Positions 1-44,084 of a DNA stretch of 64,000 bases are shown here, piece after piece. The position numbers were made by a program, and so were the translations under genes. The notes beneath the pieces were generated by a model that searched no databases, was not told the DNA's origin, and saw nothing but the letters and a program-made list of their open reading frames with translations. Position 1 is the first letter of the stretch. Each line of letters opens with the position of its first letter. The stretch is from Mobula hypostoma. Lineage: Eukaryota. Location of the stretch: the NCBI RefSeq assembly GCF_963921235.1, contig NC_086097.1:16864001-16928000 (forward strand), written 5' to 3'.

Positions 1-295
1 GACCTCATTTGCTAGTATTGGACCCGTAGCCTTCTAAACATTTCCTACGTATGTCCCTGTCTAACTGTCTTTTAAAACTTATTTTATACTTGCCTCAGCC
101 ACATCCCCTGTACCACCCTCTGTGTGGCCCCTTAGGTTTTTACTAAATCTTTCCCCTCTCACCTTAAACCTATGCCCACTGGCTTTTGATTCCCCAGCTC
201 TGAATAAAAAAGTCTTGAGTGCATTCACCCTATCCATCCCTTTTACAATTTTATACACTTCTTCATGATGGTCTTTCAGTCTCCTGTGCTCCAAG
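1..295 (-). mobile_element. CR1 LINE 3' fragment (decayed)
   Basis: ORF 79..294 has 'EVYKIVKGMDRVNA...GHRFKVRGERF', matching the C-terminus of the intact CR1 ORF2 at 1568-4180. Confidence 0.75.
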
Positions 296-6294: not shown

Positions 6295-8290
6295 CTCATA
6301 AGGCCAAAAGACATAGGTGCAGAATTAGGCCACTCAGCCCATCAAGTCTGCTCTGCCGTTCCATTATGCTGATTTATTATCCCTCTCAGCCCCACCCTCC
6401 TGCCTTCTTCCCATCAGTTTTGATGCCCTGAGTAATCAAAACCTGATCAGCCTCCGCTTTAAATATACTTAATAACTTGGCCTCCACAGCCACTTGTGAC
6501 AATGAACTGCACAGATTCACAGTTCTATATAGACATCCCTCTAGCCTGAGGCTGTGCCCTCTGGTCCAAGACTCACCAGCTGTAGGAAACATCCTCCCTA
6601 CATCCACTCTATCTAGATCTCACAATATTTGATAAGTTTCAATGAGATCCCTCCTCATTCTTCTAATCTCCAACGAGTGCAAGCCCAGCGCTACTAAACG
6701 CTCCTCATATGTTAACCCTTCCATTCCATAAGACCATAAGACATAGGAGCAGAAATAGGGCATTTGGCCCATCAAGTCTGCCCTACCATTCAATCATGGC
6801 TGATCCTCCTCAGGCCAACACCCCGGCCTTCTCCCTGTAATTTTTGATGCCGCGGCCGATCAAGAACCTATCAAACTCAGCCTTAAATACACTCAATGGC
6901 CTGGCCTCCACAGCTGACTGTGGTATCAAATTCTACAAATTCACAACTCTCTCGCTAAAGGAATTTCACTGCGTCTCTGCTTTAAATGGGCACCCCTCTA
7001 TCCCGAGGCTGCGCTCTCTTGTCCTAGACTCCACAGGAAACATCCTTTCCACATCTATTCCGTCTAGGCGTTTCAACATTCGAAAGGTTTCAGTGAGATC
7101 CCCCATCAACCTTCTAAATTCCAGTGACTACAGGCCCAGAGCCATCAAACGTTCCTCATATTCTAACCTTTTCATTCGCGGAACACTCTCCAATGCCAGC
7201 GCATCTTCAAGGAGCACAAAATTGTTCACAATAATCTAGGTGAGGCCTCACCAGTGCCTTATAAAGCCTCACCTTCACATCCCTGCTCTTATATTCTAGA
7301 CCTCTCAAAATGAATGCTAACATTGCATTTGCCTTCCTCACCAACGACTCAATCTGTAAGTTAACCTTTAGGGTGTTCACCAATCTCCATTTCATCTGCA
7401 AATTTGGCAAAAAAGCCATCTGTTCCATTATCTAAATTATTGATATACAGCATAAAAAGAAGCGGTCCCAACACCGACCCCTGCAGAACACCTCTAGTCA
7501 TTGGCACCAACCGGAAAAGAATTCTTTTATTCACACTTGCTGTCCCCTACCAATCAGCCAATGCTCTAACCATGTTAGTAACTTTCCTGTAATAACATGG
7601 GCTCTTAACCTGGTAAGCAGCCTTATGTGTGACATCTTGTCAAAGACCTTCTGAAAATCCGAATATACAACATCCACTACATCCCCTTTATCTATCCTAC
7701 TTTTAGTCTCCTCAAAGAATTCCAACAGGTTCGCCAGACTTTGTCCTATCTTGTCCTGTGTCACCAAGTATTCCATAACCTCAACTTTAACAATTGACTC
7801 CAACATCTTCTCGTGAACCTCCTCTGGACCCTTTCCAATGCAGGCCATCTTTTCTTAGATAAAAGGCCCGCAACTGCTCATAATACTCCATGTGTGATCT
7901 GATCAATGTGTTATAAAACCTCAGCATTACATTGTTTCTTTGATAGTCTAGTCCTCTCAAAATGAATGCTAACATTACATCTGCCTCCCTTACCTTCTAC
8001 TCAACCTGCAAGTTAACTTTCAGGGAATTCTGCCCAAGGACTCCCAAGTCCCTTTGCACCTCTGATTTTTGAATTTTCTTCCCGCTTTGAAAATAATCTA
8101 TGCTTTAATTCCTTCTGCCAAGAGCATGACCATATACTTCCCTACACTATATTCCATTTGCCACTTCTTGGCCCATTCTCCCGATCTGTCCAAGGCCTTG
8201 TACAGACTCCCTGCTTCCTCAACACTACCTACCTCTCCACTTAACTTTGTATCATCTGCAAACTTGGTCACAAAGCCATCAATTCCACAG
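6295..8290 (-). mobile_element. Stack of decayed CR1 fragments
   Basis: ORF pieces 'RMFPTAGESWTRGHSLRL', 'RGLEYKSRDVKVRLYKALVRPHL', 'DFQKVFDKMSH'; (CCATAAGA)n tail at about 6726-6740. Confidence 0.85.
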
Positions 8291-8631
8291 GTAGATCAAG
8301 CAGTTCCGAAGGCCATGTTCCAAGGATGTTGGAATACACAAACAAGGCTCTTGATGAAGTTGTAGAGAGTTTTATTGAGATGTTAAAGGACCACTGTGTG
8401 AATTTTTTTACCTGCTTCCTTGAAATATTCTGGTTACTTGCAAACTTGTTTAAGAATTTTATGTTACTATATAAGGGCTTTATTTCTCTGCGATGTACTT
8501 AATATGTGCTGTACATAAAGGGAGCCAATGTTAGATTTTCAGAAAACATTCGATAAAGGTTAGCATGGAAAACTGAAGCACAGTATCATTTCAAAGGTTA
8601 TTGTATCCAATAATAGAAACTAATGTTTTGG

Positions 8632-9190
8632 ACCATAAGACATAGGAACAGAATTAGGCCATTTGACCCATCAAGTCTGTTCCACCATTCAATCATGGCC
8701 GATTTTTTCAACCTTATTCTTCCCCTTCTCCTCATAATCTTTAATCCCATTACCATGCAAAAACCTATCAATCTCTGCCTTGAATACAACCAATGACTTG
8801 GCCTCCATAGCCCTTTGTGCACAGATTAAATGAATGAAGAAATTCCTCACCAAACCAGTTTTAAAGGGATGTCCCTTTATTCTGAGGTTGTTTCTTTGGA
8901 TCCTAGACACTTACTAATGGAAACATCCTCTTCACGTCTACTCTGTTCAGACTTTTCTGTGTCTGGTATGTTTCAAGAAATCCCCCTCTTCCACTCAGTC
9001 CTTCTGAACTCCATTGAGTACAGGTCCAGAACCATCAAAGACTCCTCATGCATTAAGCCTTTCATTTCTGGAATTGCTTTGGGAACATTCTCTGGATGCT
9101 CTCCAGGGCCAGTACATCTTTCCTTGGACACGCAGTTCAAGATTGCTCATAATATTCCAAATACAGCTTGACCAATACTTACAAAGCCTC
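8632..9190 (-). mobile_element. CR1 3' fragment
   Basis: 'EAKSLVVFKAEIDRFL' peptide and CR1 3' UTR/tail. Confidence 0.8.
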
Positions 9191-9994: not shown

Positions 9995-11690
9995 CCAGTA
10001 TAATGAAGTGCATATTGAAATCCTCATGACTATCATAACATTGCCCTTTTGACATGCCTTTTCTATCTCCCATTGTAATTTGTAGCCCATATCCTGGCTA
10101 CTGTTTGGAGGCCTGTATATAACTCCTATCCTCCAAGGAGGAGGAGAAGATGGCGGCGCGACGCAGCTTGCGCGGCCACTCCGGTGAATGATATCTGTAA
10201 TCTGTCAAGTAGGGTGCCGTGCACAATACTGATTAGATGGAGACAGACGTGAGAGAATGGAGGAACATCTGGAGAAACTTCAGAAATGCCTTTTTTGCTA
10301 CCGTTGCTACTGTGTGATCCTGAATCTCCGGAGGGGAAGGCCCCGAGTCCTTGGCTTTGTTTGTTGTTCGGCGGCCGGGACAGGATCGAAGCGCTCGGCA
10401 GAGATGGTGCTCAGTGCTCGGTGTCGAAGGGCTGGTTGGAGGCTCGAAGTTTTTGGACGGACTCAGAGTTGGCTGTGGTCGGGTGCTTCCAATGCATCGG
10501 CAGTTGTTGGTGCCTGGAGGTTTATGGTAGGGAGAGTTTCTCCTTCTGCTGCCTACTATCGGGGACTATTGGGAGTCGATCGGAACTTTGAGACTTTTTT
10601 TTACCGTGCCCATGGTCTGTTCTTTATCAAATTATGGTATTGCTTTACACTGCTGTAACTACAAGTTATAATTATGTGGTCTTGTCAGTGTTAGTCTTTG
10701 ATTTGTCCTCTTTTTGTGATATCACTCTGGAGGAACATTGTATCATTTCTTAATGCATGTGTGCATTTCTAAATGACAATAAATGAGGACTGAGTGTCCT
10801 CATAATCTAATATCAGGTCTTTATACCTTGCAGTTTCTTAACTTTACCCACAAGAATTCTACATCTTCCAATCCTAGGTTATCTCTTTCTAAGTAGTTGA
10901 TTTAATTTTTTTTACCAACAGAGCCATGCCAGCTCCTCTGCCTGCCTGTATCATTGGATGTTAATCTCCCAACTATGATCTTCTTTCAGCCATGATTCAG
11001 TGATGCCCATAATGTTATACCTACCAATCTCTAACTGTGCTACAACATCATTTATCTTATTCCATATACTATGTGCGTTCAAATATAACACCTTCAGTCC
11101 TGTATTCATCACCCTTTTTCTGTTTGTCCCCCTTTTACTCTGCATCTCATTTCACTGACTGCAATTTTGCCCTATCATCTGCCTGTCCTTCCTGACAGTC
11201 TCACTACGTACTGCATCTGCTTGTAAACCAACTGTCTCATTCTTTGCCTTATCACACTGGTTCCCATCCCCTGCCAATTTAGTTTAATCCTTCCCAACAG
11301 CTCCAGCAAACCCGCCTTCAAGGATATTGGCCCCCTTGGGTTCAAGAGTAATCCATCCCTTTTGCACAGATTACACCTTCTCCAGAAGAGATCCTAATGA
11401 TCTAGAATTCTAAAGCTCAGCCCCCTGCACCAGCTCCTCAGTCACACTTTCATCTGTGAAATCATCCTATCACACCCTCATCTTCATCTTCCCATATGAC
11501 CCGAAGGTCATCGAGCTGCAGCTCCAGTTCCTTAAAACTTTCTCTGAGAAGCTACAGCTTAGTGCACCTGGTGCAACTGAGGTTTACCGGGAGGCTGGAG
11601 ATCACTCAGAACTCCCACATCTCACACAAAGAACACAACACAGCCCCTGGAGCCATCCTCACTGCACCTACCAACAGATGGATAATGAAG
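9995..11690 (-). mobile_element. CR1 fragment covering the ORF1/ORF2 junction, split by the 10131-10810 insert
   Basis: 'LKVLYLNAHSIWNK...MGITESWLK' is the CR1 APE N-terminus; 'EIEKACQKGNVMIVM' continues on the other side of the insert. Confidence 0.8.
10131..10810 (+). mobile_element. Non-coding CpG-rich retroposon with a LINE-like 5' end and a Rex-like 3' tail
   Basis: Starts near AAGATGGCGGCG and ends 'ggaacattgtatcatt...atgacaataaa...'; TATC repeated at 10127-10130 and 10811-10814; cleanly splits a CR1. Confidence 0.6.
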
Positions 11691-11898: not shown

Positions 11899-12374
11899 AG
11901 CACAAGAGATTCTTCAGATGCTGAAAATCTAGAGTTGCTCTTACACAAAATGCTTGAACTCAGCAAGTCAGGCATCTATGGAATGGAATAAAGATGTTTC
12001 AGCCCGACACCCTTCATCAGGACTGGAAAGGAAGGGGGGAAGAAGCCAGAATAAGAAAGTGAGGAGGAGGGCAAGGAGTACAAGCTAGAAAATGATAGGT
12101 GAAGTGAGATAGGGCTTCTTCTGCAGGCCTTTACCTTTCCTACCTATCTCCTCCCAGCTTCCCACTTCATCCCCTTCTCACACCCTCTCATCTGGTTTCA
12201 TCTATCACCTGCCAAATTGTACTCCTTCCCTTCCCCCCATCTTCTTATTTTGTTTTCTTCCCCCTACCTTTCTAGTCCTGATGAAGGGTCTTGGCCTGAA
12301 GTATTGACTCTTTCCATACCTTTCCATAGTTGCTACCTGACTTGCTGAGTCCCTCCAGCATTTTATGTGTTACT
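11899..12374. mobile_element. Old inverted (tail-out) Penelope pLTR-derived element
   Basis: Two inverted arms, each with a decayed CTGATGAAGGG...GAA hammerhead motif (about 11993-12026 minus, 12273-12308 plus). Confidence 0.75.
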
Positions 12375-12882
12375 TTAATTTTTGACTTTACTTTAAAGTT
12401 TTCCTTTGGAGACATTAGCAATTAGTGAAAAAGAATGACTTCAATAAAATATATATTTTTTGTGTTTAGAGTTCATTCCATTGTGCAGATCTGCCATTAC
12501 ACAGGGACTTTTGACAGCCATGGGTTTCAAGGACTTTAATACTGCCTCAGTGCATTGTTAATAATGAAATTGTTATGACCTGTTAGAAAATCTAGATGAT
12601 TGTTTGCAGATTAGTGGTTTAGTAATGATGGAGGACAAATAATTAAAATGTTCCATTACTAACCATTCACATCTTTTTGTTTCACAATAGGAGACTGATA
12701 GACCACAGACCATAAGACATAGGAGCAGAATTAGGCTATTCAGTAGTACAACTGGGCTGGGCAACTAAATGGTAAACTAAAACCCCTCTTTTTGTTGTCT
12801 CACCAGTTGCTGTTCGGCAGCCCAAAGAAACACTGCAATCTGCTTTCCTTTTTATATAAATCTGAGACCATGGTGTTTCCAT

Positions 12883-14754: not shown

Positions 14755-16800
14755 TAAAACCAGAAGAGCATAAGATATGGGAGCAGAAGTAGGCCATTCT
14801 GTTCTGCCATTCAATCATGGGCTGCTCCAATTCTTCCAGTCGTCCCCACTCCCCTTCCTTCACCCCATACCCTTTAATGCCCTGGATAATCAAGAACCTA
14901 TCTATCTCTGCCTTAAGTACATCCAATGACTTGGCCTCCACAGCCACTCGTGGCAACAAATTCCACAGATATACCACCCTCTGACTAAAGTAATTTCTCT
15001 GCATCTCTGTTCTAAATGAACATCCTTCAATCCTGAAGTCATGCCCTCTTGTCCTAGACTCCCCTACCATGGGAAATAACTTTGCCATATCTAAAGCTAT
15101 TCAGGCCTTTTAACATTCGGAATGTTTCTATGAGATTCTCCCCGTCATTCTCCTGAACTCCAGGGAATACAGCCCAAGAGCTGCCAGACGTTCCTCTTAT
15201 GGTAACCCTTTCGTTCCTGGAATCATTCTCGTGAATCTTCTCTGAAACCACTCCAATGTCAGTGTATCCTTTCTAAAATAAAGAGCCCCAAACTGCACAC
15301 AATACTCCAAATGTGGTCTCACGAGTGCCTTATTGAGCCTTAACATCACATCCCTGATCTTATATTCTATACCTCTAGAAATGACTGCCAACATTGTATT
15401 CCCCTTCTTCACCACCGACTCAGCCTGGAGGTTAACCTTTAGGGTATCCTGCACAAGGACTCCCAAGTCCCTTTGCACCTCTGCATTTTGAATTCTCTCC
15501 CCATCTAAATAATAGTCTGCCCATTTATTTCTACCACCAAAGTGCATGACCATATACGTTCTGACATTATATTTCATTTGCCACTTCTTTGCCCATTCCC
15601 TTAAACTATCTAAGTCACTCTGCAGGCTCTCTGTTTCTTCAACACTACCCACTCCTTCACCTATCTTTGTATCATCGGCAAATTTAGCCACAAATCCCTT
15701 AATCCCATAGTCCAAATCATTGGCATACATCGTAAAAAGCAGCGGTCCCAACACCGACCCCTGTGGAACTCCAGTGGTAACTGGTAGCCAGCCAGAATAG
15801 AATCCCTTTATTCCCACTCTCTGTTTTCTACCGATCAGCCAATGCTCCACCCACGCTAGTAACTTCCCTGTAATTCTATGGGCTCTTATCTTGCTAAGCA
15901 GCCTCATGTGCAGCACCTTGTCAAAGGCCTTCTGAAAATGCAAGTACACCACATCTACTGCATCTCCTTTGCCTATCCTGCTTGTAATTTCCACAATGTA
16001 TTGCAGTAGGTTAGTCAGGCAGGATTTTCCTTTCAGGAAACCATGCTGGCTTTGGCCTATCTTGTCATGTGCCTCCAGGTATTCCGTAATCTCATCCCTA
16101 ACAATCGATTCCAACAATTTCCCAAGCACTGATGTCAGGCTAACAGGTCTATAGTTTCCTTTCTGCTGCCTCCCACCCTTCTTAAATAGCGGAGTAACAT
16201 TTTCAACTTTCCAGTCATCTGGTACAATGCCAGAATCTATCAATTCTTAAAAGATCATTGTTAATGCCTCCACAATCTTTCCAGTTACTTCCTTCAGAAC
16301 CCAAGGATGCATTTCATCAGGTCCAGGAGATTTATCCGTCCTCAGATCATCAAGCTCCCTGAGCACCTTCTCAGTAGGAATTTTCACTGCATAAACTTCA
16401 CTTCCCTGACACTCTTGAATGTCCAGTATACTGCAGATGTCTTCTACTATGAAGACTGATGCAAAATACATTCAGTTCCTCTGCCATCTCTGTGTCTCTC
16501 ATTACAATACCTCCAGTGTCATTTTCTATTGGTCCTATATCTACCCTTGACTCTCTTTTACGCCTTATATATTTAAAAAAGCTTTAGTATCTTCTTTGAT
16601 ATTAGTCACCAGCTTCCTTTCATAATTCATCTTTTCCTTCCTAATGACCTTCTTAGTTTCCTTCTGCAAGATTTTAAAAGCTTCCCAATCCTCTTATCTT
16701 CCCACTAACTTTGGCTTCCTTGTATGCCCTCTCTTTTGCTTTTACTTTGGGACTGACTTCAGTTGTCAGCCATGGTAATGTCCTTCTTCCATCTGAAATC
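14755..16800 (-). mobile_element. Decayed CR1 LINE (RT region)
   Basis: ORF 15197..16243 has QHGF, FQKAFDKV, GVPQGSVLGP and KFADD; adjacent frames carry KSPGPD and the C-terminal motifs, with stops and frameshifts. Confidence 0.92.
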
Positions 16801-18947
16801 ATCTTCTTGAACCAGTGTAGATATTTTCACAGAATTGATGAAGGAAACCCTGTGGAGCTGTTGGCTGGAGAGTTTTAGGATTTAGATGCAGTGACAATAA
16901 AAGGGCCAGCGGCACATTTCCAGGTCAAGGTGATGTGTGACTTGGGGTGAAACCTGGAAGTGGCAGTGCTCCCTTCCACCTGCTGACCTTGTCCTTCTTG
17001 GTAATAGAGACTGAGGGAATAGGGATGTTCTCAGAGGAACAATATTCATGTGGTTATTCTGGTTGAGTTTCTGGCCAATGATGCCTGTGAATGTCAAGGG
17101 CTGGTTACGTAAGAACATAAGAAATAGGAGCAGGAGTAGGCCATCTGGCCTGTCGAGCCTGCTTCGCCATTCATAAGATCATGGCTGAGCTGGCTATGGA
17201 CTCATCTCCACCTACCTACTTTGAACTGTCTTGTTGGAGATGGTCATTGCCTGCCATATTTGAGGCACAAATTTTACCTGTCTTTTATCAACCCATGTCT
17301 CATTGTTTTCCGCTTCCTGCTGTACTCAGGAATATGCTGTTTCATTTGCTGAGGAGATGGAAATGAAAATGGACATTGTGCAATGATCTGCGAACAGCTC
17401 CACTATCCTTATGCTGAAAGGAAGGTTGTTAATGAAGTCGGTCCTAGGTCCTGAGGCAGTCCTGAAGTGATATTCTGAGGCTGAGACAATGACCACAATC
17501 ATCTTCTTTTCTTGCAAGTCAGTACTTCATCTAGAGTGCTTCTCCTCTGATGCACATTGAAGCTACTCTTAATTAAATATTGAATTCTGTGAAATTGAGT
17601 CATTCTCACCTAGCCTCTGGAAGTCAGGTCTTAGGTTAATGTTTGGTGAAAGGGCTGTGAAGAGGCTTGGTATGTATCAGATCATGTAAGACGGCAGATT
17701 GCTCCCTCAAAACCAGATGGGTTATTAGTGGTAGTTTTTTGGTGGCATTTTTTCCGAGACTAGTAGGCATTTTTTTCAAATCCCTAATTATTACTTGAAT
17801 TTAAATTCTGCACTGTCATTGTAGGATTTGAATGTTGTTCTCCAGTTTAATTGTTACATTACCATAGCCTGACAAGGTAAGTGTTACGGAAATTATAGAA
17901 TATTCGTGATAGAAGATCTTCTTTCTGTTCTGATTTTAACCTTCTGTTGGTACAATTGTGGAGTTAACAGGAGGCTGAGACTTTGAGACTGAGATGTGTA
18001 GACAGATTGTAGGCACAGCATATGTTAAAGGACTTGAACAGTTAAATAATCAGTTACCAATATTGGCATTGGATGAGGTTTGATGTGACATTATGCTGGC
18101 AATATCCTATGAATGACTGAGAATCTCATACTGGGCTCCTATGGTATTAAAGTCCTTTCTGGAGCCTGAGGAAATGTGTTCTCATGAACTGGAGATTTGA
18201 GCAAGCTTAATTTGGGTCAGATCTTTAGTTCCAAGGATTGGCATTCCCAAACTCTGTTGACAGCTCTTTGTTCTGCCCTGACAGCTAATGATATTTAAGT
18301 AAGGTTACTCCTATTAGTGAAGCAAATTACTATTCCCTCTCTGTATCTTTTACTCCTCTAATAGAAATGCAGTTGACATTGATAATTTAATTAAACCTCA
18401 AACTGGTCTCTAGTTCTTTTTATCTATGCCAACATTTGAAGCTGGGCATGGATCAAAAATAATTACCTCATTTCATGTAAACATGAATCTAAAAATTATG
18501 AAGCTAATTTGGAATGTCAAAGCTAATTTCAACCTATATCCTCCTTAATAGCCTTGCCTTTCTCTAACTCAAAAGAGTATTATAGAAATATCATTAAAAT
18601 GTGGATAGAAATGCAGGCAGCTTGAGCTAATGTAGTGCACAGGAGAGGGTATTTTTTTAACTCTGAGATCAGACTTCCACAGTGGTCTGAGGGTTGTGGC
18701 TTAGGATATGGGGTATAATGAGAGGATAGAGTGGTAGTAAGGGTGCATTAGGTACAGTCGATTGAACTCAGTCTTTTCCAGAACTGCTTAGTCCTGATGT
18801 TGAGTGACCTAGACGATAAGTGTACCATTCTGCAATGAGGCACTAATCTTGGTGCTTGATCACATCCGTTCTTCAAACAGCAAAGCTGATACCTCAGAAT
18901 CACAAGCGAATCAGGTTTAACATCATCATCCTATAGGATGTGAAATA

Positions 18948-19141
18948 TGCAAACACCAGGAAATCTGCAGATGCTGGAAATTCAAGCAACACACATAAAA
19001 AATGCTGGTGAATGCAGCAGGCCAGGCAGCATCTATAGGAAGAGGTACAGTCGACGTTTCAGGCCGAGACCCTTCGTCAGGACCCTTTGACCTGACGAAG
19101 GGTCTCGGCCCGAAACATCGACTGTACCTCTTCCTATAGAT
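18948..19141. mobile_element. Hairpin-shaped PLE mini-element (left part); its right end is at 22895-22921
   Basis: Inverted pLTR arms; 16-bp TSD TATAGGATGTGAAATA at 18932-18947 and 22922-22937 encloses it together with the nested long PLE. Confidence 0.85.
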
Positions 19142-19201
19142 AACACACATCAAAGTTGCTGGTGAACGCAGCAGGCCAGGCAGCATCTATAGGAAGAGGC
19201 G

Positions 19202-19239
19202 CAGTCGACGTTTCAGGCCGAGACCCTTCGTCAGGACTA
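19202..19239 (-). ncRNA. Minimal type I hammerhead ribozyme in the 3' pLTR
   Basis: UAGUC CUGACGA A GGGUCUCGGCCU GAAAC GUC/GACUG: stem I UAGUC:GACUG, CUGANGA and GAAA core, palindromic ACGU stem III; predicted cut between 19207 and 19206. Confidence 0.85.
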
Positions 19240-19530
19240 ACTGAAGGAAGAGTGAGTAAGGGATTTGAAAGCTGGAGGGGGAGGGGGAGATGTAAAATGA
19301 TAGGAGAAGACAGGAGGGGGAGGGATGGAGCCGAGAGCTGGAAAGGTGATAGGCAAAAGGGGATACGAGAGGATCATGGGACAGGAGGTCCGGGAAGAAA
19401 GACGGGGGGGGGTGACCCAGAGGATGGGCAAGAGGTATATTCAGAGGGACAGAGGGAGAAAAAGGAGAGTGAGAGAAAGAATGTGTGCATAAAAAAGAGT
19501 AACAGATGGGGTACGAGGGGGAGGTGGGGC

Positions 19531-22500
19531 CTAGCGGAAGTTAGAGAAGTCAATGTTCATGCCATCAGGTTGGAGGCTACCCATACGGAATATAAGGTGT
19601 TGTTCCTCCAACCTGAGTGTGGCTTCATCTTTACAGTAGAGGAGGCCGTGGATAGACATGTCAGAATGGGAATGGGATGTGGAATTAAAATGTGTGGCCA
19701 CTGGGAGATCCTGCTTTCTCTGGCGGACAGAGCGTAGATGTTCAGCAAAGCGGTCTCCCAGTCTGCGTCGGGTCTCACCAATATATAAAAGGCCACATCG
19801 GGAGCACCGGACGCAGTATATCACCCCAGTCGACTCACAGGTGAAGTGATGCCTCACCTGGAAGGACTGTTTGGGGCCCTGAATGGTGGTAAGGGAGGAA
19901 GTGTAAGGGCATGTGTAGCACTTGTTCCGCTTACACGGATAAGTGCCAGGAGGGAGATCAGTGGGGAGGGATGGGGGGGACGAATGGACAAGGGAGTTGT
20001 GTAGGGAGCGATCCCTGCGGAATGCAGAGAGAGGGGGGGAGGGAAAGATATGCTTAGTGGTGGGATCCCGTTGGAGGTGGCGGAAGTTACAGAGAATAAT
20101 ATGTTGGACCCGGAGGCTGGTGGGGTGGTAGGTGAGGACCAGGGGAACCCTATTCCTAGTGGGGTGGTGGGAGGATGGAGTGAGAGCAGATGTACGTGAA
20201 ATGGGGGAGATGCATTTAAGAGCAGAGTTGATAGTGGAGGAAGGGAAGCCCCTTTCTTTAAAAAATGAAGACATCTCCCTCGTCCTAGAATGAAAAGCCT
20301 CATCCTGAGAGCAGATGCGGCGGAGACGGAGGAATTGCGAGAAGGGGATGGCGTTTTTGCAAGAGACAGGGTGAGAAGAGGAATAGTCCAGATAGCTGTG
20401 AGAGTCAGTAGGCTTATAGTAGACATCAGTGGATAAGCTGTCTCCAGAGACAGAGACAGAAAGATCTAGAAAGGGGAGGGAGGTGTCGGAAATGGACCAG
20501 GTAAACGAGGGCAGGGTGAAAGTTGGAGGCAAAGTTAATAAAGTCAACGAGTTCTGCATGCGTGCAGGAAGCAGCGCCAATGCAGTCGTCGATGTAGCGA
20601 AGGAAAAGTGGGGACAGATACCAGAATAGGCACGGAACATAGATTGTTCCACAAACCCAACAAAAAGGCAGGCATAGCTAGGACCCATACGGGTGCCCAT
20701 AGCTACACCTTTAGTTTGGAGGAAATGGGAGGAGCAAAAGGAGAAATTGTTAAGAGTAAGGACTAATTCTGCTAGACGGAGCAGAGTGGTGGTAGAGGGG
20801 AACTGATTAGGTCTGGAATCCAAAAAGAAGCGTAGAGCTTTGAGACCTTCCTGATGGGGGATGGAAGTATATAGGGACTGGACATCCATGGTGAAAATAA
20901 AGCGGTGGGGGCCAGGGAACTTAAAATCATCGAAAAGTTTAAGAGCGTGAGAAGTGTCACGAACATAGGTCGGAAGGGATTGAACAAGGGGTGATAAAAC
21001 AGTGTCGAGGTATGCAGAAACGAGTTCTGTGGGGCAGGAGCAAGCTGAGACAATAGGTCGGCCAGGACAGGCAGGTTTGTGGATCTTGGGTAGGAGGTAG
21101 AAACGGGAAGTGCGGGGTGTGGGAACTATAAGGTTGGTAGCAGTGGATGGGAGATCCCCTGAGCGGATAAAGTCGTTGATAGTGTGGGAGACAATGGCCT
21201 GGTGCTCCTTAGTTGGGTCACAATCGAGGGGTAAATAAGAGGAGGTATCCACGAGTTGTTGCTGTGCCTCAGCAAGGTAGAGGTCAGCACGCCAGACTAC
21301 AACAGCACCCCCCTTATCAGCGGGTTTAATAATAATGTTAGGATTAGTGCGGAGGGAGTGGAGAGCAGAGCGTTCCGAAGGAGTGAGGTTAGAATGGGGA
21401 CAAGGTGCGGTGAAGTCGAGACGGTTGATGTCCCGTCGGCAGTTGGCAATAAAGAGATCCAGAGCAGGCAGAAGACCAGAGCGGGGTGTCCATGAAGAAG
21501 AGGAGTGTTGAAGACGGGAGAAGGGGTCATCGGTGGGGGTGGAAGAGTCCTTGCCGAAGAAGTAGGCTCGGAGACGGAGACGGTGGAAGAAAAGTTCTGC
21601 ATCGTGGCGAACACAGAACTCGCTGAGGTGTGGGCGAAGGGGGACAAACGTGAGGCCCTTACTGAGAACAGAGCGCTCTGCCTCTGACAGTTGAAGGTCG
21701 GAGGGGATGGTAAAGACCCGGCACGGATGAGAGCTGGGATCAGAGGGGGGGGGAGGGGGGAGGCTGGGGGTGTCAGTGGAGAGGGGAGGGTTGGGGTGAG
21801 AGGAAGATGGAGCCTCTGAGGGCCCAGGAGTTGACGGTGGGATCTGAGGAAGACGGGGCTGCGGAGTGGTGGTGGGGGAAGGGGAGACGGGAGTCACAAC
21901 AGCAGCACATAAAGACCCGGCCTGGAGTTCAAGGCTGGAGTCGCAGTTGGTGGTTGCGCGATCGCTTTGAATGTCTCCATGGTCGTTGCTGGAGTCCGGG
22001 TTTTGAATATGTCCTGAGGTGTTGGAGCCGGCGAGATCAATGGCAGAGGCCGCAATCTGAAGTTCATGCCTACTAGTTTCATGGTCAGCAGGCTCTGGAG
22101 TCCGTAGATGTAAGATCTTGCGATCTTTGCCTAACATGACAAAGTCAAAGAAACGGCGATTGCAGGCGTGGATCCGACGGAGGATGAAATACCGGGTAGG
22201 ACCATTACAGACGGCGAAGAAAGTGTCCCGAAGGAGTGGAAGGGTCTGGGATAGGGACACCAAGTACCTCCTCATGGCGGAGAGCGTCGCCTTCAGAGCT
22301 TGACGGGAGAAGCGGCGAGAGGCAGAGTCAATGAAATGTGAGTACCTGGGATCCTCAGAAGGTCCAAATTGAGAGGCTTGGAAACGAATCCCAAAGCCAA
22401 CTGGAGTAAGTTGGCGACGGAGGCACGTTCCTAGAAAGGATACATGGCTGTGATAGCGAGTTTGAGTCAAAGTCTGGTCGAAAAGTTGAAGAGCCGAAGA

Positions 22501-22581
22501 AATCACAGATGGGGAGCAGTGAGAGATGGTTTCACTGAACTCCCGTCGAAGAGAGGATCTAAACTTCTTCGGTGTAGGCAT
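19531..22581 (-). CDS. PLE polyprotein: N-terminal region, RT, Cys-rich linker, GIY-YIG endonuclease (1016 aa from the ATG at 22581); RT catalytic motif out of frame
   Basis: KPADKGGAVVV, FYLLPKIHK..PGRPIVS, MDVQSLYTSIP, GVAMGTRMGPSYA, PFLDL, YKPTDSHSYL, CKRNKCYTC, VIYCVRCSRCGLLYIGETRR..EH; YIDD codons at 20585-20596 lie in another frame. Confidence 0.9.
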   Translation of the reverse strand: MPTPKKFRSSLRREFSETISHCSPSVISSALQLFDQTLTQTRYHSHVSFLGTCLRRQLTPVGFGIRFQASQFGPSEDPRYSHFIDSASRRFSRQALKATLSAMRRYLVSLSQTLPLLRDTFFAVCNGPTRYFILRRIHACNRRFFDFVMLGKDRKILHLRTPEPADHETSRHELQIAASAIDLAGSNTSGHIQNPDSSNDHGDIQSDRATTNCDSSLELQAGSLCAAVVTPVSPSPTTTPQPRLPQIPPSTPGPSEAPSSSHPNPPLSTDTPSLPPPPPSDPSSHPCRVFTIPSDLQLSEAERSVLSKGLTFVPLRPHLSEFCVRHDAELFFHRLRLRAYFFGKDSSTPTDDPFSRLQHSSSSWTPRSGLLPALDLFIANCRRDINRLDFTAPCPHSNLTPSERSALHSLRTNPNIIIKPADKGGAVVVWRADLYLAEAQQQLVDTSSYLPLDCDPTKEHQAIVSHTINDFIRSGDLPSTATNLIVPTPRTSRFYLLPKIHKPACPGRPIVSACSCPTELVSAYLDTVLSPLVQSLPTYVRDTSHALKLFDDFKFPGPHRFIFTMDVQSLYTSIPHQEGLKALRFFLDSRPNQFPSTTTLLRLAELVLTLNNFSFCSSHFLQTKGVAMGTRMGPSYACLFVGFVEQSMFRAYSGICPHFSFATSTTALALLPARMQNSLTLLTLPPTFTLPSFTWSISDTSLPFLDLSVSVSGDSLSTDVYYKPTDSHSYLDYSSSHPVSCKNAIPFSQFLRLRRICSQDEAFHSRTREMSSFFKERGFPSSTINSALKCISPISRTSALTPSSHHPTRNRVPLVLTYHPTSLRVQHIILCNFRHLQRDPTTKHIFPSPPLSAFRRDRSLHNSLVHSSPPSLPTDLPPGTYPCKRNKCYTCPYTSSLTTIQGPKQSFQVRHHFTCESTGVIYCVRCSRCGLLYIGETRRRLGDRFAEHLRSVRQRKQDLPVATHFNSTSHSHSDMSIHGLLYCKDEATLRLEEQHLIFRMGSLQPDGMNIDFSNFR

Positions 22582-22714
22582 CACCGGAAGAGGCTTCGCA
22601 GTAGTGAATTTAAACGCAAACAACAGGAATTCTGCAGATGCTGGAAATTCTAGCAACACACATCAAAGTTGCTGGTGAACGCAGCAGGCCAGGCAGCATC
22701 TATAGGAAGAGGCG

Positions 22715-22752
22715 CAGTCGACGTTTCAGGCCGAGACCCTTCGTCAGGACTA
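22715..22752 (-). ncRNA. Minimal type I hammerhead ribozyme in the 5' pLTR
   Basis: Identical to 19202-19239; predicted cut between 22720 and 22719. Confidence 0.85.
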
Positions 22753-22939
22753 ACTGAAGGAAGAGTGAGTAAGGGATTTGAAAGCTGGAGGGGGAGGGGG
22801 AGATGCAAAATGATAGGAGAAGACAGGAGGGGGAGGGATAGAGCCGAGAGCTGGACAGGTGATAGGCAAAAGGGATACGAGAGGATCATGGGACAGGCCT
22901 GCTGCGTTCACCAGCATCTTTTATAGGATGTGAAATAGG

Positions 22940-23705
22940 TTGTTTTGTGGCAGCACCGCAGTACAGATATAAATTACTATAAATTAGAAAATAAACAGTG
23001 GAAGCAAAAGGAATACTGAGGTAGTGTTCATGGGCTGTTCAGAAATCTGATAGTGGAGGGGAAGGAGCTGTTGTGGCATTGCTGATTGTGGTCCTCCCTG
23101 GTTGTGGTTACAAGAAGATAGCATGTACTGGATGGTGAGGATCCTTAATGGTGGATGCTGCCTTCGTGAAACACTGCTTCTTGAAGAAGATCTTGGTGGT
23201 GGAAGAGTTAACTGAGTCTCCAATCCTCTGTAGCCTCTTGCATCCTTATACATTGGAGCCTCCGTACTACGCAGTAATGCGACCAGTTAGAATGCATTCC
23301 ACCATACATTTGTAAAAGTTTGCAAGAGTCTTTGGTGACTTGCCAAATTTCCTCAAACTTCAAGTCCAAGTTCAAATTTATTGTCATCTGACTGTACATA
23401 TCTATTATACAGCCTCCGGACCATGGTGCACCTACACAACATATATCATAGCACAGCACACAAATCAGTGAATAAAATATAATTTAAAATACATGTGAGC
23501 ACAGGTAAACAGTAAACAGATCACTGTCTTAGTGATGAGACCCCAGTGGCGGCAGAGTATTCAGTAGTCTCATAGTCTGGGGGGAAGTAAAGTTGCTGGT
23601 GTGCCTTTGTGATTCTGTCAATGTGTTGGGCCCAGGACAGATCCTCCGAGATGTGGACAGCCAGGAATTTGAAGCTGCTCAACCTTTCCATCACTGACTG
23701 CTCAA
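22940..23705 (-). mobile_element. Rex/Babar-like 3' fragments
   Basis: 'ERLSSFKFLAVHISEDLSWAQHID' peptide; (TTGAAC)-type tail near 23360-23380. Confidence 0.65.
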
Positions 23706-26700
23706 TGAGTATGTGTTCTCCTGGGCATCTTGTTTCTCTGGATGTCATTTCCATTGTCCCAAGGTATGTTTTCAAGTCCTCATTTATAGGGTGATCTTTC
23801 TCCATGCATTATGCCCACAATTGTCAAACTAGTCTGTATAATCATTGTTAATTGCTTCCATCCTCTGCATTTGCTTATAATGTGAACCATAGATCCAGTA
23901 TACTGGGACCGTATTAACTGCTCTTTGTTTCCTTCAATTCCGCTGTTATATTTTTAGAAGTTCTTCACACTAAGTTCTAAATCCTATCCTTATTGCAATC
24001 CTCCAATGAAGGAAAAGGACGGACCGAGATGGAGGACCTTCATTGCTGCCCTAAATGACCCTGGTGTAATGGGCAATAACAATGAATGAAACTTTAAATG
24101 TCCATAGAATCAAAGAAGTCTGAAGTTGAGAAAGAGATCATTATGTCTAGGCTAGTTAAAACATAATCCCATTTCCCACATGTTAGTCTGTATCCTTCCC
24201 AGGTTTTGGTTGCTTAGGTGAATAACTTCACATAGCTTTCATTCTTTATACACTTTCTTGCTCTTCAGCATTCTCATGGTTTTATTTTCCATTGAATCTA
24301 ACGTACAGTACCTGTAGAATTGTGCTTGGTTTGATAGCTTAGCCTAGAGTCCAAGTTGACAATGCTGTTTGTTCAGGTTCAAGTTTAAATGCCATTCAAT
24401 CGTACATGAATGGCCATGAATACAGCTAAATGAAACAGCATTACTCCGGCCCCAAGGTGCAAGACACAGAACCAACATTCACACACTGCACAAGGTACAT
24501 ATGAGATATCAGTAAAATGCAGTCACACAAAAAATGTAGTCCTAAACCCCATGAGTCCATGAATGTTGCGGCTGTCTGTAGCTGAACACAATGCAGCTTG
24601 TTTTCGGCTGAGCAAACACTAGGGAGCAGCACCGACTCCAACTTGGACACTGCACCACTCTGCCTCTGATGGAGCGCTCTGACTCTGACATCTCTGTCCT
24701 GGGCAGCTGTAAACAGGCGATACCACGGATTGAGGCCTAGTCATTGCTATGACCGCAGCCACTCAGCTCCCCTGCCGTCTGTCAATAAATCGGGGAATCA
24801 GACTTGCAGCATTCCACATTAACAATGTACAACAGGGTCTTGCAGTCACAAGAAAAGCCACTGAGCTGATCACCCAGTGTCAGACTACGCACTGCTTTCA
24901 CGCATTGACTAGCATTAATGTAGGCACCATGTGACATATGGTCTCCTTGTGTGTTGACATTTTTCTAATTCCATGAAAGGTACCGAGACATTGGGAAGGT
25001 TGACAAAGGCTGAGGAATGGATTTTAAATTATTCAGCTGTGAAAAAAAGCGAGACTGATCTGTCTCATAAAGGAGACTAGCCCATCTCATTTGGGAAAAG
25101 AAAGAGGCAGAAAAGGAGTTCAAGTTTTTTAAGCTCACAACGGAACATGGAGAAATTTTGAACTGGAGACTCAAATGCAACTTTCAGGCCAAATGGAATT
25201 TCAACTACTTCTCACTTAGCAATTACATAACTAAACAGACTGCCCAGAATAACAGTTTATTCCATTACCAGTAGGCCATACATTTGGAGACGGGGCAGAA
25301 GGGAAATTCAGATAGTTTGAATGGGTCTTTTACTTGGGCTGAGTGGTCGATTTGTGCGTACCCCATAGTGTCACACACAAGGCCACACAAATTAATAACT
25401 TACAATCTGAAAACACACTTTCTTTTATTATTTACATGTACAGGTCACTGTTTTAAATGTAATGCTTCCTGTGGAACAAGGGTTAGATAGGGGTTTACCA
25501 CCTGGGACACACATCCCCATCAAGCTTAATAGACCAATTAACTTATTTGTCCATAAAGCATTCCGAGACAGTTAGTACAAGTTTAAAGAAAAAATTTCCC
25601 AGAAGTCCAAAATTATAATTTTAAAACGAGACATTTGTCCGAATTCTTAAATTGTTACATTATGATGCTATTAACAACACAAAGGACTTGCCAGCTATTG
25701 CTAACAAGTTAAATAAAGACATGTGTGTTACAGGGTTCAGTAAATGAACCTTCATTGTTGAACATAAAATAGCGGCTCCATTTGGTTTTAATCCTTCTGA
25801 GAGGATATGTTGCAATACCTACTCATGGTTCAGATAAAAATCACAAGTGTGCTCCCAACTTATATATGGCTTTGTCCCTCCAGTTTCCTCTGCTTTTCCA
25901 ACTGATATTGGATTTTACTTCAGTAGGCCTATATACTCTCGGCACTCCATCTTTCACCGAGCAAAATTTGCTATCTTCTCATCTGTAAGGTCCAGAGTCA
26001 TATTATACCAGGCCATGCATCCACCTGCAAAGCCACAGCAGTGTATCCTCAATCAGAGATGTGATCTTGGGTCATTTACTTGCTGCTTCTTGGAATGATG
26101 GTTTTCCATTTCCTGATCCAATAAGTACCAAGGGTGGAGATACAAAGGAAACCCAGCTCGCTGAGAAATTGAGGGTAATGTGGAGAAATAACGCAGATCG
26201 CAGTGAAACATGAAGAGGTCCTCAAGAATGCCCATGTTCTTTGTATTCGTACATTCACCACTGTGTAGGTTCCAGAGGAAGAAATTATGTGTTACACATG
26301 CTCTGCCATTTGGAAAGTAAAACAAAAGATTGAAACGTTAACCTTTCCACTCAGAAATTCAGTTCTGATGCCAGCACAGGCAGCACGACTTTCCCCTCTA
26401 AGATGGTTCAGTAAAAGCACTAACCGTGGGCAGTCTCAACTGAAGTCCCAGTGGAGACAGGGAATGTGAAATTGGCACCAAACTGGTCCTTGATTAAGCA
26501 TTATTTCAATCCTACAAACAGTTCTAATTGTGTCCTGCTCATTTGCTGTCATTTGGCTGAAGGGGATCCTCTATCAACCATAATGGATGAGCGTCTGGTG
26601 CGTCCTGCCAAAATGATGATTGAGGGAGTAACTCCGGCACAAGGTCAAGTTTCAAGTATGTCAGTCTTCCAGCCTAACCTTGATTTGACAAAGTGGTGCA

Positions 26701-27799
26701 TGCCAAATCCATTGTTGTTATTTAATCCCACCCCTGAGATTGTGGTCTTACCCCAGGGCTTTTGATGTATGTTCATTTTATTTTTTGCAATATTGCTTAG
26801 CAGGGAATAAACATTGAGTTAATTCAGGATAGTAAGTCAAAAGTATAGAAATAACAGTTACTAGGGAGGGGAGTGGTTTAAACTAAACAGCTGAACAAGC
26901 CGTGGGCAGGAGGAGATTTTTGTGATATGCGGCGTATTTTAATGGTCTTAAACTCTGGAGGAAGCAGATTTAGTACTTGCTTTCAAAAGGAAGTCAAGTA
27001 AAGGACTTGCTGAATTTCTTTGGTACATTTCAGAGGGCTTTATTTAAAATTTTTGTTAGTGTTCAGAAAACTTGCGTAATTTTTATTATTAAAAAGTCTT
27101 AAGGATGCATCAACTTTAGGTCTCAATAAGTCCAACTAAGTTAAAATCACAAAGTCACAGGCCAATGTGATGTGTCTGTGCTCTGAATCTGTAAATGATA
27201 CAGTGAAGTATTCCACGATTTGAAATGTTGTTATCCTGATACCTTACCCTTATCAGAATATGGAGACACAATTGTGCCACTTGTTAGACACAGCAATGAA
27301 ATCTAGACTTAACTCTGCATTTGTTAAGGACAAGTGGAGTGAGCCTACTTTTCAATTTGGTAGGAAATAATTTCACTTTGAAAGTAATTCCATTGCCTCT
27401 GACTGGAGGCATGTGTCACAGGGATCGGTGCTAGGTCCATTGTTGTTTATTATCTGTATTAATCATTTAGATGATAATGTCATAAACTACTTTGACAAAT
27501 TTGTGATGACATCAAGATAGGAGGTGTAGTGGACAGTGAGGAAGACTATCAAAGTTTGCAGCAGGATCTGGCCCTACTGGAAAAATGGGCTGAAAAATGG
27601 CAGATGGAATTTACTGCAGACAAGTGTGAGGTGTAGAACTTTGTGAGGACAAGCCAGGGTAAACCTTACACAGTGAATGTTAACAACAGGAATTCTGCAG
27701 ATGCTGGAGATTCAAGCAACACACATCAAAGTTGCTGGTGAACGCAGCAGGCCAGGCAGCATCTATAGGAAGAGGCGCAGTCGTGCAGCATCTATAGGA

Positions 27800-29238
27800 A
27801 TGTTCGTGACACTTCTCACGCTCTTAAACTTTTCGATGATTTTAAGTTCCCTGGCCCCCACCGCTTTATTTTCACCATGGATGTCTAGTCCCTATATACT
27901 TCCATCCCCCATCAGGAAGGTCTCAAAGCTCTACGCTTCTTTTTGGATTCCTGACCTAATCAGTTCCCCTCTACCACCACTCTGCTCCGTCCAGCAGAAT
28001 TAGTCCTTACTCTTAATAATTTCTCCTTTTGCTCCTCCCATTTCCTCCAAACTAAAGGTGTAGCTATGGGCACCCGTATGGGTCCTAGCTATGCCTGCCT
28101 TTTTGTTGGGTTTGTGGAACAATCTATGTTCCGTGCCTATTCTGGTATCTGTCCCCCACTTTTCCTTCGCTACATCGACGACTGCATTGGCGCTGCTTCC
28201 TGCACGCATGCAGAACTCGTTGACTTTATTAACTTTGCCTCCAACTTTCACCCTGCCCTCAAGTTTACCTAGTCCATTTCCGACACCTCCCTCCCCTTTC
28301 TAGATCTTTCTGTCTCTGTCTCTGGAGACAGCTTATCCACTGATGTCTACTATAAGCCTACTGACTCTCACAGCTATCTGGACTATTCCTCTTCTCACCC
28401 TGTCTCTTGCAAAAACGCCATCCCCTTCTCGCAATTCCTCCGTCTCCGCCGCATCTGCTCTCAGGATGAGGCTTTTCATTCTAGGACGAGGGAGATGTCT
28501 TCATTTTTTAAAGAAAGGGGCTTCCCTTCCTCCACTATCAACTCTGCTCTTAAATGCATCTCCCCCATTTCACGTACATCTGCTCTCACTCCATCCTCCC
28601 ACCACCCCACTAGGAATAGGGTTCCCCTGGTCCTCACCTACCACCCCACCAGCCTCCGGGTCCAACATATTATTCTCCGTAACTTCTACCACCTCCAACG
28701 GGATCCCACCACTAAGCACATCTTTCCCTCCCCCCCTCTCTCTGCATTCCGCAGGGATCGCTCCCTACACAACTCCCTTGTCCATTCGTCCCCCCCATCC
28801 CTCCCCACTGATCTCCCTCCTGGCACTTATCCGTGTAAGCGGAACAAGTGCTACACATGCCCTTACACTTCCTCCCTTACCACCATTCAGGGCCCCAAAC
28901 AGTCCTTCCAGGTGAGGCATCACTTCACCTGTGAGTCGACTGGGGTGATATACTGCGTCCGGTGCTCCCGATGTGGCCTTTTATATATTGGTGAGACCCG
29001 ACGCAGACTGGGAGACCGCTTTGCTGAACATCTACGCTCTGTCCGCCAGAGAAAGCAGGATCTCCCAGTGGCCACACATTTTAATTCCACATCCCATTCC
29101 CATTCTGACATGTCTATCCACGGCCTCCTCTACTGTAAAGATGAAGCCACACTCAGGTTGGAGGAACAACACCTTATATTCCGTATGGGTAGCCTCCAAC
29201 CTGATGGCATGAACATTGACTTCTCTAACTTCCGCTAG
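27800..29238 (+). pseudogene. PLE RT/GIY-YIG coding remnant with in-frame stops
   Basis: In-frame RYIDD (YIDD codons 28171-28182); stops at 27886-27888, 27952-27954 and 28270-28272; intact GIY-YIG in ORF 28495..29238. Confidence 0.9.
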
Positions 29239-29530
29239 GCCCCACCTCCCCCTCGTACCCCATCTGTTACTCTTTTTTATGCACACATTCTTTCTCTCAC
29301 TCTCCTTTTTCTCCCTCTGTCCCTCTGAATATACCTCTTGCCCATCCTCTGGGTCACCCCCCCCCCGTCTTTCTTCCCGGACCTCCTGTCCCATGATCCT
29401 CTCGTATCCCCTTTTGCCTATCACCTGTCCAGCTCTCGGCTCTATCCCTCCCCCTCCTGTCTTCTCCTATCATTTTGCATCTCCCCCTCCCCCTCCAGCT
29501 TTCAAATCCCTTACTCACTCTTCCTTCAGT

Positions 29531-29568
29531 TAGTCCTGACGAAGGGTCTCGGCCTGAAACGTCGACTG
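29531..29568 (+). ncRNA. Minimal type I hammerhead ribozyme
   Basis: tagtc ctgacga agggtctcggcct gaaac gtc gactg; predicted cut after 29563. Confidence 0.85.
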
Positions 29569-29844
29569 CACCTCTTCCTATAGATGCTGCCTGGCCTGCT
29601 GCGTTCACCAGCAACTTTGATGTGTGTTACAGTGAATGTTAGTTCTCTGATGTGTGCAGTTGAACAATGTGATCTGGGAATACATATCCATAATTTCTTG
29701 GAAGTGGCATTCACATGTAGATTGGGCTGTAAAGAGAGCTTTTAGAACATTGGCCTTCGTAGATTATGTCAGTGAGTACAGGAATTGGGATGTTACGTTG
29801 AAGTTGTACAAGATGTTGGTAAGACTGAACTTAGAGTATTGTGT

Positions 29845-30476
29845 CAACACACACAAAAACTGCTGGTGAACGCAGCATCTATAGGAAGAGGTACAGTCGA
29901 CGTTTCGGGCCGGGACCCTTCGTCAGGACTGACAGTAAGAAGAGATAGTAGGTGATGAATATTGGCATGAATATTGACTTCTCTAACTTCCTTTAATGCC
30001 TCTCCTCCCCTACACACCCCATCCCTTATTTATTTATTTTATATATTTTTCATATATTTTTAATTTTTCCCCCCTTTTTCTCTCTCTCTCTCTCTTTTAC
30101 CTCCCTCTGTCCCTCTCACTATAACTCCTTGCCTGCTCTCCACCCTCTGGGCTCCCCTCTCCCCTTCTCTTTCTCCCCAGGTTTCGCGTCCCATGATCCT
30201 CTCCCTTCTCCAGCCTCATATCCCTTTTGCCAATCAACTGTCCAGCTCTTGGTTCCATCCCTCCCCTCCTGTCTTCTCCTATCATTTTGGATCTCCCCCT
30301 CCTCCTCCCACTTTCAAATCTCTTACTATCTTTTCTTTCAGTTAGTCCTGACGAAGGGTCCTGGCCCGAAACATCGCCTGTACCTATTCCTATAGATGCT
30401 GCCTGGTCTGCTGCGTTCACCAGCATTTTTTGTGTGTATTCCTTGAACTTACAGCATCTGCAGATTTCCTCGTGTC
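29845..30476. mobile_element. Inverted PLE-end element (related subfamily)
   Basis: 12-bp TSD AGAGTATTGTGT at 29833-29844 and 30477-30488; hammerhead motifs at 29894-29931 (minus) and 30343-30380 (plus, mutated). Confidence 0.9.
29894..29931 (-). ncRNA. Minimal type I hammerhead ribozyme
   Basis: Perfect stem I CAGUC:GACUG, stem II GGGU-CCCG-GCCC, intact core. Confidence 0.8.
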
Positions 30477-37788: not shown

Positions 37789-37962
37789 ACAAACAAGAGC
37801 AGATTTGCAGATGCTGGAATCCAAGCAACACACACAAAATGCTGGAGGAATTCAGCAGGCCAGGCAGCATCGATGGAAAAGAGTACAGTCGATGTTTTGG
37901 GCCGAAATGCTTTGGCAGGACTTGCCTTCCCTGCTGAGTTCCTCCAGCATTTTGTGTGTGAG
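37789..37962. mobile_element. Short inverted PLE-end element (older subfamily)
   Basis: 9-bp TSD TCTGTGATC at 37780-37788 and 37963-37971; inverted arms 'acacacaaaatgctggagga' / 'tcctccagcattttgtgtgt'. Confidence 0.8.
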
Positions 37963-43322: not shown

Positions 43323-43417
43323 AACAACAGGAATTCTGCAGATGCTGGAAATTCAAGCAACATACATCAAAGTTGCTGGTGAACGCAGCAGGCCAGGCAG
43401 CATCTATAGGAAGAGGT
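43323..43417 (-). mobile_element. 95-bp PLE insert corresponding to the sequence downstream of the hammerhead cut
   Basis: 7-bp TSD ACATCCA at 43316-43322 and 43418-43424. Confidence 0.85.
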
Positions 43418-44042: not shown

Positions 44043-44084
44043 AGCCTTTACCATTTTCTCACTACCCAATATCAATTCCCCCTT

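Follow-up and report, generated by a model that had tools for sequence, protein, structure and literature searches.

Insertion ends of a hammerhead-bearing Penelope-like element family in Mobula hypostoma point away from the predicted ribozyme cleavage site

Minimal hammerhead ribozymes occur in the pseudo-long terminal repeats (pseudo-LTRs) of metazoan Penelope-like elements (PLEs), including the fish elements Xena, Poseidon and Neptune (Cervera and De la Pena 2014, PMC4209133; this and the other papers cited are drawn on here in part). For these motifs a low activity as dimers was found, and a model of excision and circle formation was proposed. In PAc, the Poseidon element of Anolis carolinensis (Frangieh et al. 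2024, PMC11167929), priming takes place internally at two start sites, hammerhead mutants left insertion in vitro unaffected, cleavage required protein and, in the part of the paper used here, zero RNA-seq reads are given as starting at the cut. Neptune elements are defined by a CX2-5CxxC linker between reverse transcriptase (RT) and endonuclease (EN) and by CCHH residues in the EN (Craig et al. 2021, PMC8557442). Both PMC8557442 and PMC11167929 call the role of the PLE hammerhead and the rebuilding of the pseudo-LTR unclear. We analyzed a stretch of 64,000 nucleotides (nt) from Mobula hypostoma (assembly GCF_963921235.1, contig NC_086097.1, positions 16,864,001 to 16,928,000, in the following called the window), in which a Penelope open reading frame (ORF) bracketed by two hammerhead motifs had been flagged. 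This element belongs to the already described kind of PLE with pseudo-LTR hammerheads. The locus itself adds little; the interest lies in the footprints of the whole family and in short tandem arrays derived from it.

The two 38-nt hammerhead motifs are identical letter for letter, as claimed in the original prediction, and the unit between their predicted cuts (22719..19207) does measure 3513 nt. Unit positions are numbered from the predicted cut, with +1 at window position 22719, 0 at the cytosine C17 (22720) and -31 at 22751, where the first Watson-Crick pair of helix I is located. The motif is not peculiar to the flagged locus: 41,517 exact copies were counted directly in the 3.48-Gb genome, with none in the control. 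More than 40,000 near-identical motifs allow a count of insertion ends base by base, by which the circle model can be tested from DNA alone.

Sister copies were sampled as 104 segments from 64 sources (63 loci and the window) after removal of the duplicate loci L001, L009, L020, L021 and L040. Their 3' ends are bimodal and fall at about +60..73 and about +101..115. Upstream, 42 segments extend past -177; the remaining 62 include 19 with a start at -29..-33 and two with a start at 0..+2, in a sample of which a part was found via the hammerhead itself and is biased. Among loci retrieved with a query from outside the hammerhead (+66..+200; end list compiled by hand), eight of 27 5' ends lie at -29..-33 and none at -1..+3. 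For the genome-wide count, exact cores preceded by two non-matching letters were regarded as junction-like 5' ends. These numbered 2,675 of 52,995 (5.0%) at -31, 126 of 15,185 (0.83%) at the cleavage site +1 and 478 at -33. Classification by eye yielded 21 true junctions among the first 22 places at -31 (unrelated DNA lies on the other side in eight, another part of the element in 13) and 13 among the first 20 at +1, and the rates corrected by this inspection are about 4.8% and about 0.5%, respectively. Compared with 86 at the control position +12, the count for the cleavage site is close to background, and the peak stands at the base of helix I, 31 nt further upstream; these first end counts point away from the cleavage site. 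Position -31 is the A of an initiator-like TTAGTCC and at the same time the first pair of helix I, so that either a transcription start site or a trimmed end is possible. Directly before this A, ACGA was seen in four of the 22 junctions (L070, L076, L079, L082), and 24 of 100 listed places have GA there; slippage onto the ACGAAG of the core may be the reason.

Pseudo-LTR pairs were compared at 14 family-polymorphic sites in 15 long copies, namely the flagged copy and 14 of 30 loci chosen for an unbroken 5' part. Eight pairs are concordant, one differs at a single site and six differ at two or more linked sites. Four copies clearly carry two haplotypes (the flagged copy, L011, L016 and L025), whereby the flagged copy differs at -120 and -86; the discordance of L028 and L032 lies partly on CpG sites. 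Since one monomer circle would give identical repeats, at least the discordant copies had two templates or a mixed tandem as their source, or were altered afterwards by gene conversion. In six loci (L022, L024, L027, L031, L033 and L035) a 5' part ending at some downstream position is joined directly to about -31 followed by the tail, and such joins point to jumps from the 5' end of the RNA. Within single insertions nearly the same 5' end was used twice in L022 (-31/-31), L031 (-69/-71), L033 (-40/-40) and L035 (-30/-31), and in L022 an oligo-A stretch stands where the two parts meet internally.

Arrays of a 310-nt unit spanning -33..+276 were found at two loci. Array 1 (L019-L021, G000:C2:157,816,4xx-157,817,8xx) starts at +41, contains four junctions, ends at +66 and has a 13-nt target duplication, and array 2 (L069, G000:C50:58,412,476-58,412,941) starts at +257, crosses the junction twice and ends at +102. 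An exact search for the flush +276/-33 junction returned only these six junctions. In both arrays the first unit is incomplete and the end falls on a priming site, and both consist of tandem units that each contain a type I hammerhead, as in retrozymes; in array 1, C17 is T in two of four motifs, with C and T alternating. The family haplotypes of the arrays differ at +28 and +61, and array 2 lacks the four variants shared within array 1. Because two of these four are family polymorphisms, the arrays arose independently.

The junction resembles a splice join. On its donor side the element continues with GTATCCTTT, which is similar to U12-type 5' splice sites, examples of which include GTATCCTTTT (PMC7367187, Table 1). 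On the other side a branch-like TACTCAC (TACTAAC in two of 12 aligned rows), a pyrimidine tract and CAG precede -33 and may constitute a splice acceptor; the branch motif did not match the U12 pattern tried. The sequence thus suggests that the arrays, two loci in all, are rolling-circle copies of a spliced circle, which would have been formed by back-splicing or by forward splicing to the 3' pseudo-LTR with subsequent hammerhead cleavage and ligation. Repeated jumps on linear RNA and duplication at the DNA level are the rival explanations. If the arrays do derive from a spliced circle, they are in-genome evidence of a PLE RT copying circular RNA and provide a concrete origin for retrozymes, with arrays born by splicing. 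None of the sequencing runs on record is listed as RNA. In contigs of four of the 24 listed runs, the +276/-33 join was absent from the 15 listed of 707 joints; one of these runs was flagged as probably DNA, and all four show a depth falling towards the 5' end like a DNA repeat. A second donor-like motif, GTATCCC, lies at unit position -158 (window 22871-22877 and 19360-19366, minus strand), 125 nt before the acceptor-like site. The corresponding 125-nt intron (-158 to -34) was rejected, as its spliced junction had no match in the DNA of the genome with up to one mismatch, a weak null because PLEs keep introns on transposition. Within literature listings and the first parts of abstracts, a scope outside of which subscription papers and supplements fall, no report of spliced circles or 5'-end jumps in PLEs was found.

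As had been proposed, the motif is a minimal hammerhead of type I whose stem III is palindromic, of the kind found in PLE pseudo-LTRs and presumed to act as a dimer (PMC4209133). It comprises CUGANGA, GAAA and UH, an open helix I and a stem III without loop, with positions 15.2-16.2 palindromic. A hammerhead descriptor detected four loopless matches in the window (the flagged pair, 19080 minus and 29536 plus) versus none in 30 first-order Markov controls, and a 34-nt pattern with up to three mismatches had 10 matches versus none in 100 shuffles. For stem II, a register with an unpaired A after the core and four base pairs (bp) is preferred (-7.0 vs -5.6 kcal/mol). The pairs are G-U/G-C, G-C, G-C and U-G and enclose a 4-nt loop, within which the loop variants of sister copies fall. 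The extra A after A9 fits PLE hammerheads, and the G10.1-C11.1 pair is G-U in the flagged copy and G-C in the C variant. Among 57 near-identical copies, changes affect the stem II loop, the one-sided G-U/G-C position and mostly CpG sites, and no two-sided covariation in the helices was found. The covariance-model check suggested in the original prediction remained blank for hammerheads: with Rfam, three unrelated weak matches were obtained on 15000-27000 at E values up to 5, which is no counter-evidence because the motif is without stem III. A second hammerhead, cutting after GUU at -32, was rejected by hand since helix I would not pair.

Folding with ViennaRNA predicts a best monomer fold in which core residues G5-G8 pair with the CGUC at the cut (-11.0 vs -7.0 kcal/mol for the open form). 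The active double hammerhead was calculated at -11.5 kcal/mol, about 19 kcal/mol above the best dimer fold (-30.3); the active dimer thus seems possible yet unfavoured. That hammerhead 2 is blocked by the antisense arm downstream was considered and rejected, as this arm pairs with hammerhead 3 in the lowest-energy fold.

For the family as a whole, the best fit is a mechanism in which uncut templates are primed internally and jumps occur, and we give this reading a probability of roughly 0.6. Priming would occur at about +66 or +102 within the RNA, and reverse transcription would pass through the uncut hammerhead. Many templates would begin at about -31, the first pair of helix I, either by transcription start or by trimming of the 5' end to the folded hairpin. 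Having arrived there, the complementary DNA (cDNA) would integrate, leaving many short copies of 100-140 nt, or would jump onto a 3' end, either of the same RNA or of a different one, whereby the pseudo-LTR is rebuilt; read-through RNAs from partial tandems may also contribute. The hammerhead would mostly reside in the inactive hairpin and, if it cuts, would most likely set the RNA's 3' end or act late with the help of protein. In rare cases splicing of +276 to -33 may give an RNA circle of 310 nt that is copied for several rounds. More tentatively, and at somewhat less than even odds, the young copies of the family may record PLE replication in these steps: uncut RNA starting at the base of the hammerhead, a jump from its 5' end to an RNA 3' end that resembles the strong-stop transfer of LTR elements, a 3' end possibly marked by the hammerhead, and a 310-nt circle, spliced from a U12-type donor in the ORF to an acceptor at helix I and copied by the enzyme of the element, that gave rise to retrozyme-like arrays.

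Several observations weigh against uncut templates and jumps. All support for the mechanism is DNA sequence. The -31 peak holds just about 5% of the hammerhead-bearing copies (about 9% after a detection factor of 9/16), the remaining 5' ends scatter from -29 to -75 or continue further, and about five of the 22 places at -31 show 1-3 nt of microhomology to an inverted arm. At the control position +12, 86 junction-like 5' ends were counted, a raw number without measured denominator. An excess of G before -31 was not seen in our own tally of 22 of 100 listed places; there is therefore no cap signature, and a cap-derived G was rejected. A join of C17 to A(-31), which a cut 3' end would leave as its direct footprint, occurred in none of the sampled loci; the pattern used for the genome-wide count does not capture such joins. 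In eight of the 15 long copies the pseudo-LTRs agree, as expected from a circle, and the discordance of the others could have arisen afterwards, by gene conversion in a family of tens of thousands of copies. Finally, nearest-neighbour energies leave the tertiary core of the hammerhead unscored, and the folds therefore show an inactive competitor and not inactivity.

That both hammerheads cut as a cis dimer and that a ligated 3513-nt circle, copied for more than one round to give the pseudo-LTRs, is the main template appears unlikely to us. This model, already published in the discussion of PMC4209133 and hence not new, matches the geometry, in which a unit is extended by 243 nt and the last base lies 65 nt beyond the cut, and is in line with the eight concordant pairs. 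The 310-nt arrays show that RT can cross one junction repeatedly, and RtcB ligates retrozyme monomers in vitro (PMC7229834). A sealed circle would leave no end at +1; unligated monomers, however, should have produced an excess of such ends, which is missing, and the peak at -31 stays unexplained. The flagged copy and at least three others carry two pseudo-LTR haplotypes, the dimer fold lies far above the predicted minimum, such dimers cleave weakly in vitro (PMC4209133) and cleavage is dispensable for the insertion of PAc (PMC11167929). Of the excision and circularization originally predicted for this locus, the geometry stands and the circle is retained as one possible route, because a sealed circle leaves no end at the cut and eight of 15 copies are concordant; as the main route it is not supported, given the 5' ends away from the cut and the discordant pseudo-LTRs of the flagged copy itself.

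We consider it similarly improbable that plain read-through suffices, with uncut partial-tandem RNAs copied without any jump, the hammerhead as a passenger, -31 as an artefact of stalling or fold-back during integration and the arrays as one chance junction amplified in DNA. This is the scenario drawn for PAc (PMC11167929), and inherited differences between pseudo-LTRs are explained by it. The 13 of 22 places at -31 that join inverted element parts, some with microhomology, would agree with fold-back, the alternating C/T at C17 in array 1 suggests some duplication at the DNA level, and a passenger hammerhead accords with the lack of two-sided covariation among the 57 copies. On the other hand, eight of the 22 places join unrelated DNA directly, and read-through alone cannot regenerate a 5' pseudo-LTR. 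One chance junction also sits badly with the same flush join at two loci of different haplotypes (+28, +61), on the only RTATCCTT of the unit, and with two arrays that have an incomplete first unit and stop at a priming site.

The features of the flagged copy are compiled in Table 1. Read directly from the minus strand, the element consists of the 5' pseudo-LTR, the 5' untranslated region (UTR), the ORF, the 3' UTR and the 3' pseudo-LTR; the two pseudo-LTRs differ by three substitutions and one indel. Two hammerheads are present because the insertion comprises, besides one unit, 243 nt of the unit before it. The element runs 65 nt past the second C17, and the cleavage sites are therefore not the bounds of the insertion. 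Pseudo-LTRs from a partial tandem, inverted 5' copies and a tail of 30-40 nt were found, as in EN-positive (EN+) PLEs. The long copy seems to be nested in an older, short head-to-head relative, because the inverted arm of the latter is split and its identity is about 93%.

Table 1. Features of the flagged element and its surroundings (window positions)
Feature	Position	Strand	Remark
5' pseudo-LTR, 243 nt	22655..22897	-	unit positions -177..+65
Hammerhead motif 1 (minimal type I)	22715..22752	-	predicted cut between 22720 and 22719
3' splice-site-like sequence at base of helix I	22753..22771	-	next base 22753 (-33)
U12-type 5' splice-site-like GTATCCTT at +277	22436..22443	-	sole RTATCCTT match in unit
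ORF, 1016 codons	19531..22581	-	RT, then C-terminal GIY-YIG endonuclease
Out-of-frame stretch holding YIDD in another frame	20506..20610	-	between two small deletions
3' pseudo-LTR, 244 nt	19142..19385	-	ends with 65-nt stretch past C17
Hammerhead motif 2 (minimal)	19202..19239	-	predicted C17 at 19207
Older head-to-head short element, right part, ~93% alike	18948..19141		apparent host of the long copy
Antisense arm of older element	19089-19141	antisense	in right part of older element
Antisense hammerhead copy	19089-19122	antisense	older element, just downstream
Third hammerhead	C17 at 19053	sense	sense arm of older element, just downstream of flagged copy
Older element, left remnant of inverted arm	22898..22921		
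16-nt direct repeat, left copy	22922..22937		target duplication of older element
16-nt direct repeat, right copy	18932..18947		target duplication of older element

The ORF encodes an N-terminal H..FL..C motif, DKG, RT motifs A and B, a CX4CX2C linker and a GIY-YIG domain with C..C/H/H residues, and these motifs align with 14 relatives at identities of 34-45%. Pfam matches to RVT_1 (E 0.0045) and GIY-YIG (E 0.0011) are both below the curated cut-offs, and a search of solved structures returned a single chance match (E 0.26). By the linker (C883-x4-C-x2-C) and the C..C/H/H columns, which distinguish Neptune from Poseidon, the protein fits a Neptune-type PLE. A CX2-5CxxC linker is common to Neptune and Nematis; in the part of bioRxiv 10.64898/2026.07.22.740005 used here, Nematis is given as absent from the 35 species sampled. 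Between two small compensating deletions, one near 20610 and one near 20506, about 35 codons are read out of frame, the YIDD of the active site among them, while the ORF stays open. A [YF]xDD motif occurs in 137 of 150 relatives, and the flagged ORF is without an in-frame version. Because its catalytic YIDD stretch is out of frame, the copy is probably dead as a source of RT. Thus, the "whole ORF" that had been placed in the excised monomer cannot yield a working RT from this copy. Eight of eight other copies keep the RT motifs in one frame, and contigs of all four sequencing runs carry extra letters at both deletion places; an assembly error is less likely than a broken copy.

Further members of the family are spread over the window. 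A 5'-truncated sister copy (27682-27783, minus, and 27800-29629, plus) is 99% alike and includes a hammerhead at about 29531-29568; its YIDD is in frame, with a nearby stop. Its inverted 5' piece at 27783 starts at C17 and was considered as a footprint of cutting, which was rejected as probable chance after the genome-wide end counts. Older or shorter copies lie at 29845-30475, 43315-44452, 52637-53175, 54101-55141, 37790-37922, 12273-12381 and 45108-45226, several of them as head-to-head pairs, and a perfect (TCAAG)8.6 microsatellite is situated between family fragments (44084-44126). Apart from this family, an ORF of 835 codons (1568-4075, minus) with endonuclease and RT domains (Pfam) resembles what we take to be a CR1/L2-type long interspersed nuclear element (LINE), and many decayed relatives are distributed over the window (families D1, D3-D8). 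The region of about 10257-10658 contains short ORFs and several CpGs, with no repeat match in the lists seen.

In comparison with described systems, the motif shares with the PLE hammerheads of PMC4209133 the type I form without a loop on stem III, the palindromic 15.2-16.2, a helix I of 4-5 bp, what appears to be the extra nucleotide after A9, pairs that flank an ORF at a spacing of about 3 kb, mostly solitary copies, and head-to-head pairs. The intron of the Drosophila virilis PLE in that study ends at the 5' end of helix I, like the acceptor-like site here. Helix II has 4 bp, with a closing G-U in the flagged copy, versus 7-8 bp in Schistosoma mansoni, and the 41,517 exact copies are more numerous and far more uniform than the roughly 4,000-9,000 variable motifs of coelacanth and Xenopus (PMC4209133). 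As in PAc (PMC11167929), two internal priming sites about 35 nt apart define the tail and an uncut RNA would serve as template, and the extension on both strands described there fits the inverted arms; unlike in PAc, the ORF has the zinc linker of Neptune/Nematis, and hammerhead and priming sites are located in the 5' UTR instead of the ORF. In the part of the PAc paper used here, a hot spot of 5' ends, jumps between templates and spliced circles are not described. With the Neptune clade of EN+ PLEs (PMC8557442) the element has in common a single ORF with RT followed by GIY-YIG, the CX2-5CxxC linker and CCHH, the partial tandem, inverted 5' copies and the 30-40 nt tail, whereas the RT active-site stretch of the flagged copy is out of frame. 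Non-LTR retrozymes (PMC7229834) resemble the 310-nt arrays, which are likewise short tandem units with a type I hammerhead derived from a pseudo-LTR; the flagged element, in contrast, is protein-coding, with a long ORF in a 3513-nt unit and no short non-coding unit. Finally, the junction of the 310-nt arrays is a splice-like GT/AG join, whereas bioRxiv 10.64898/2026.07.22.740005 proposes local tandem amplification and unequal crossover.

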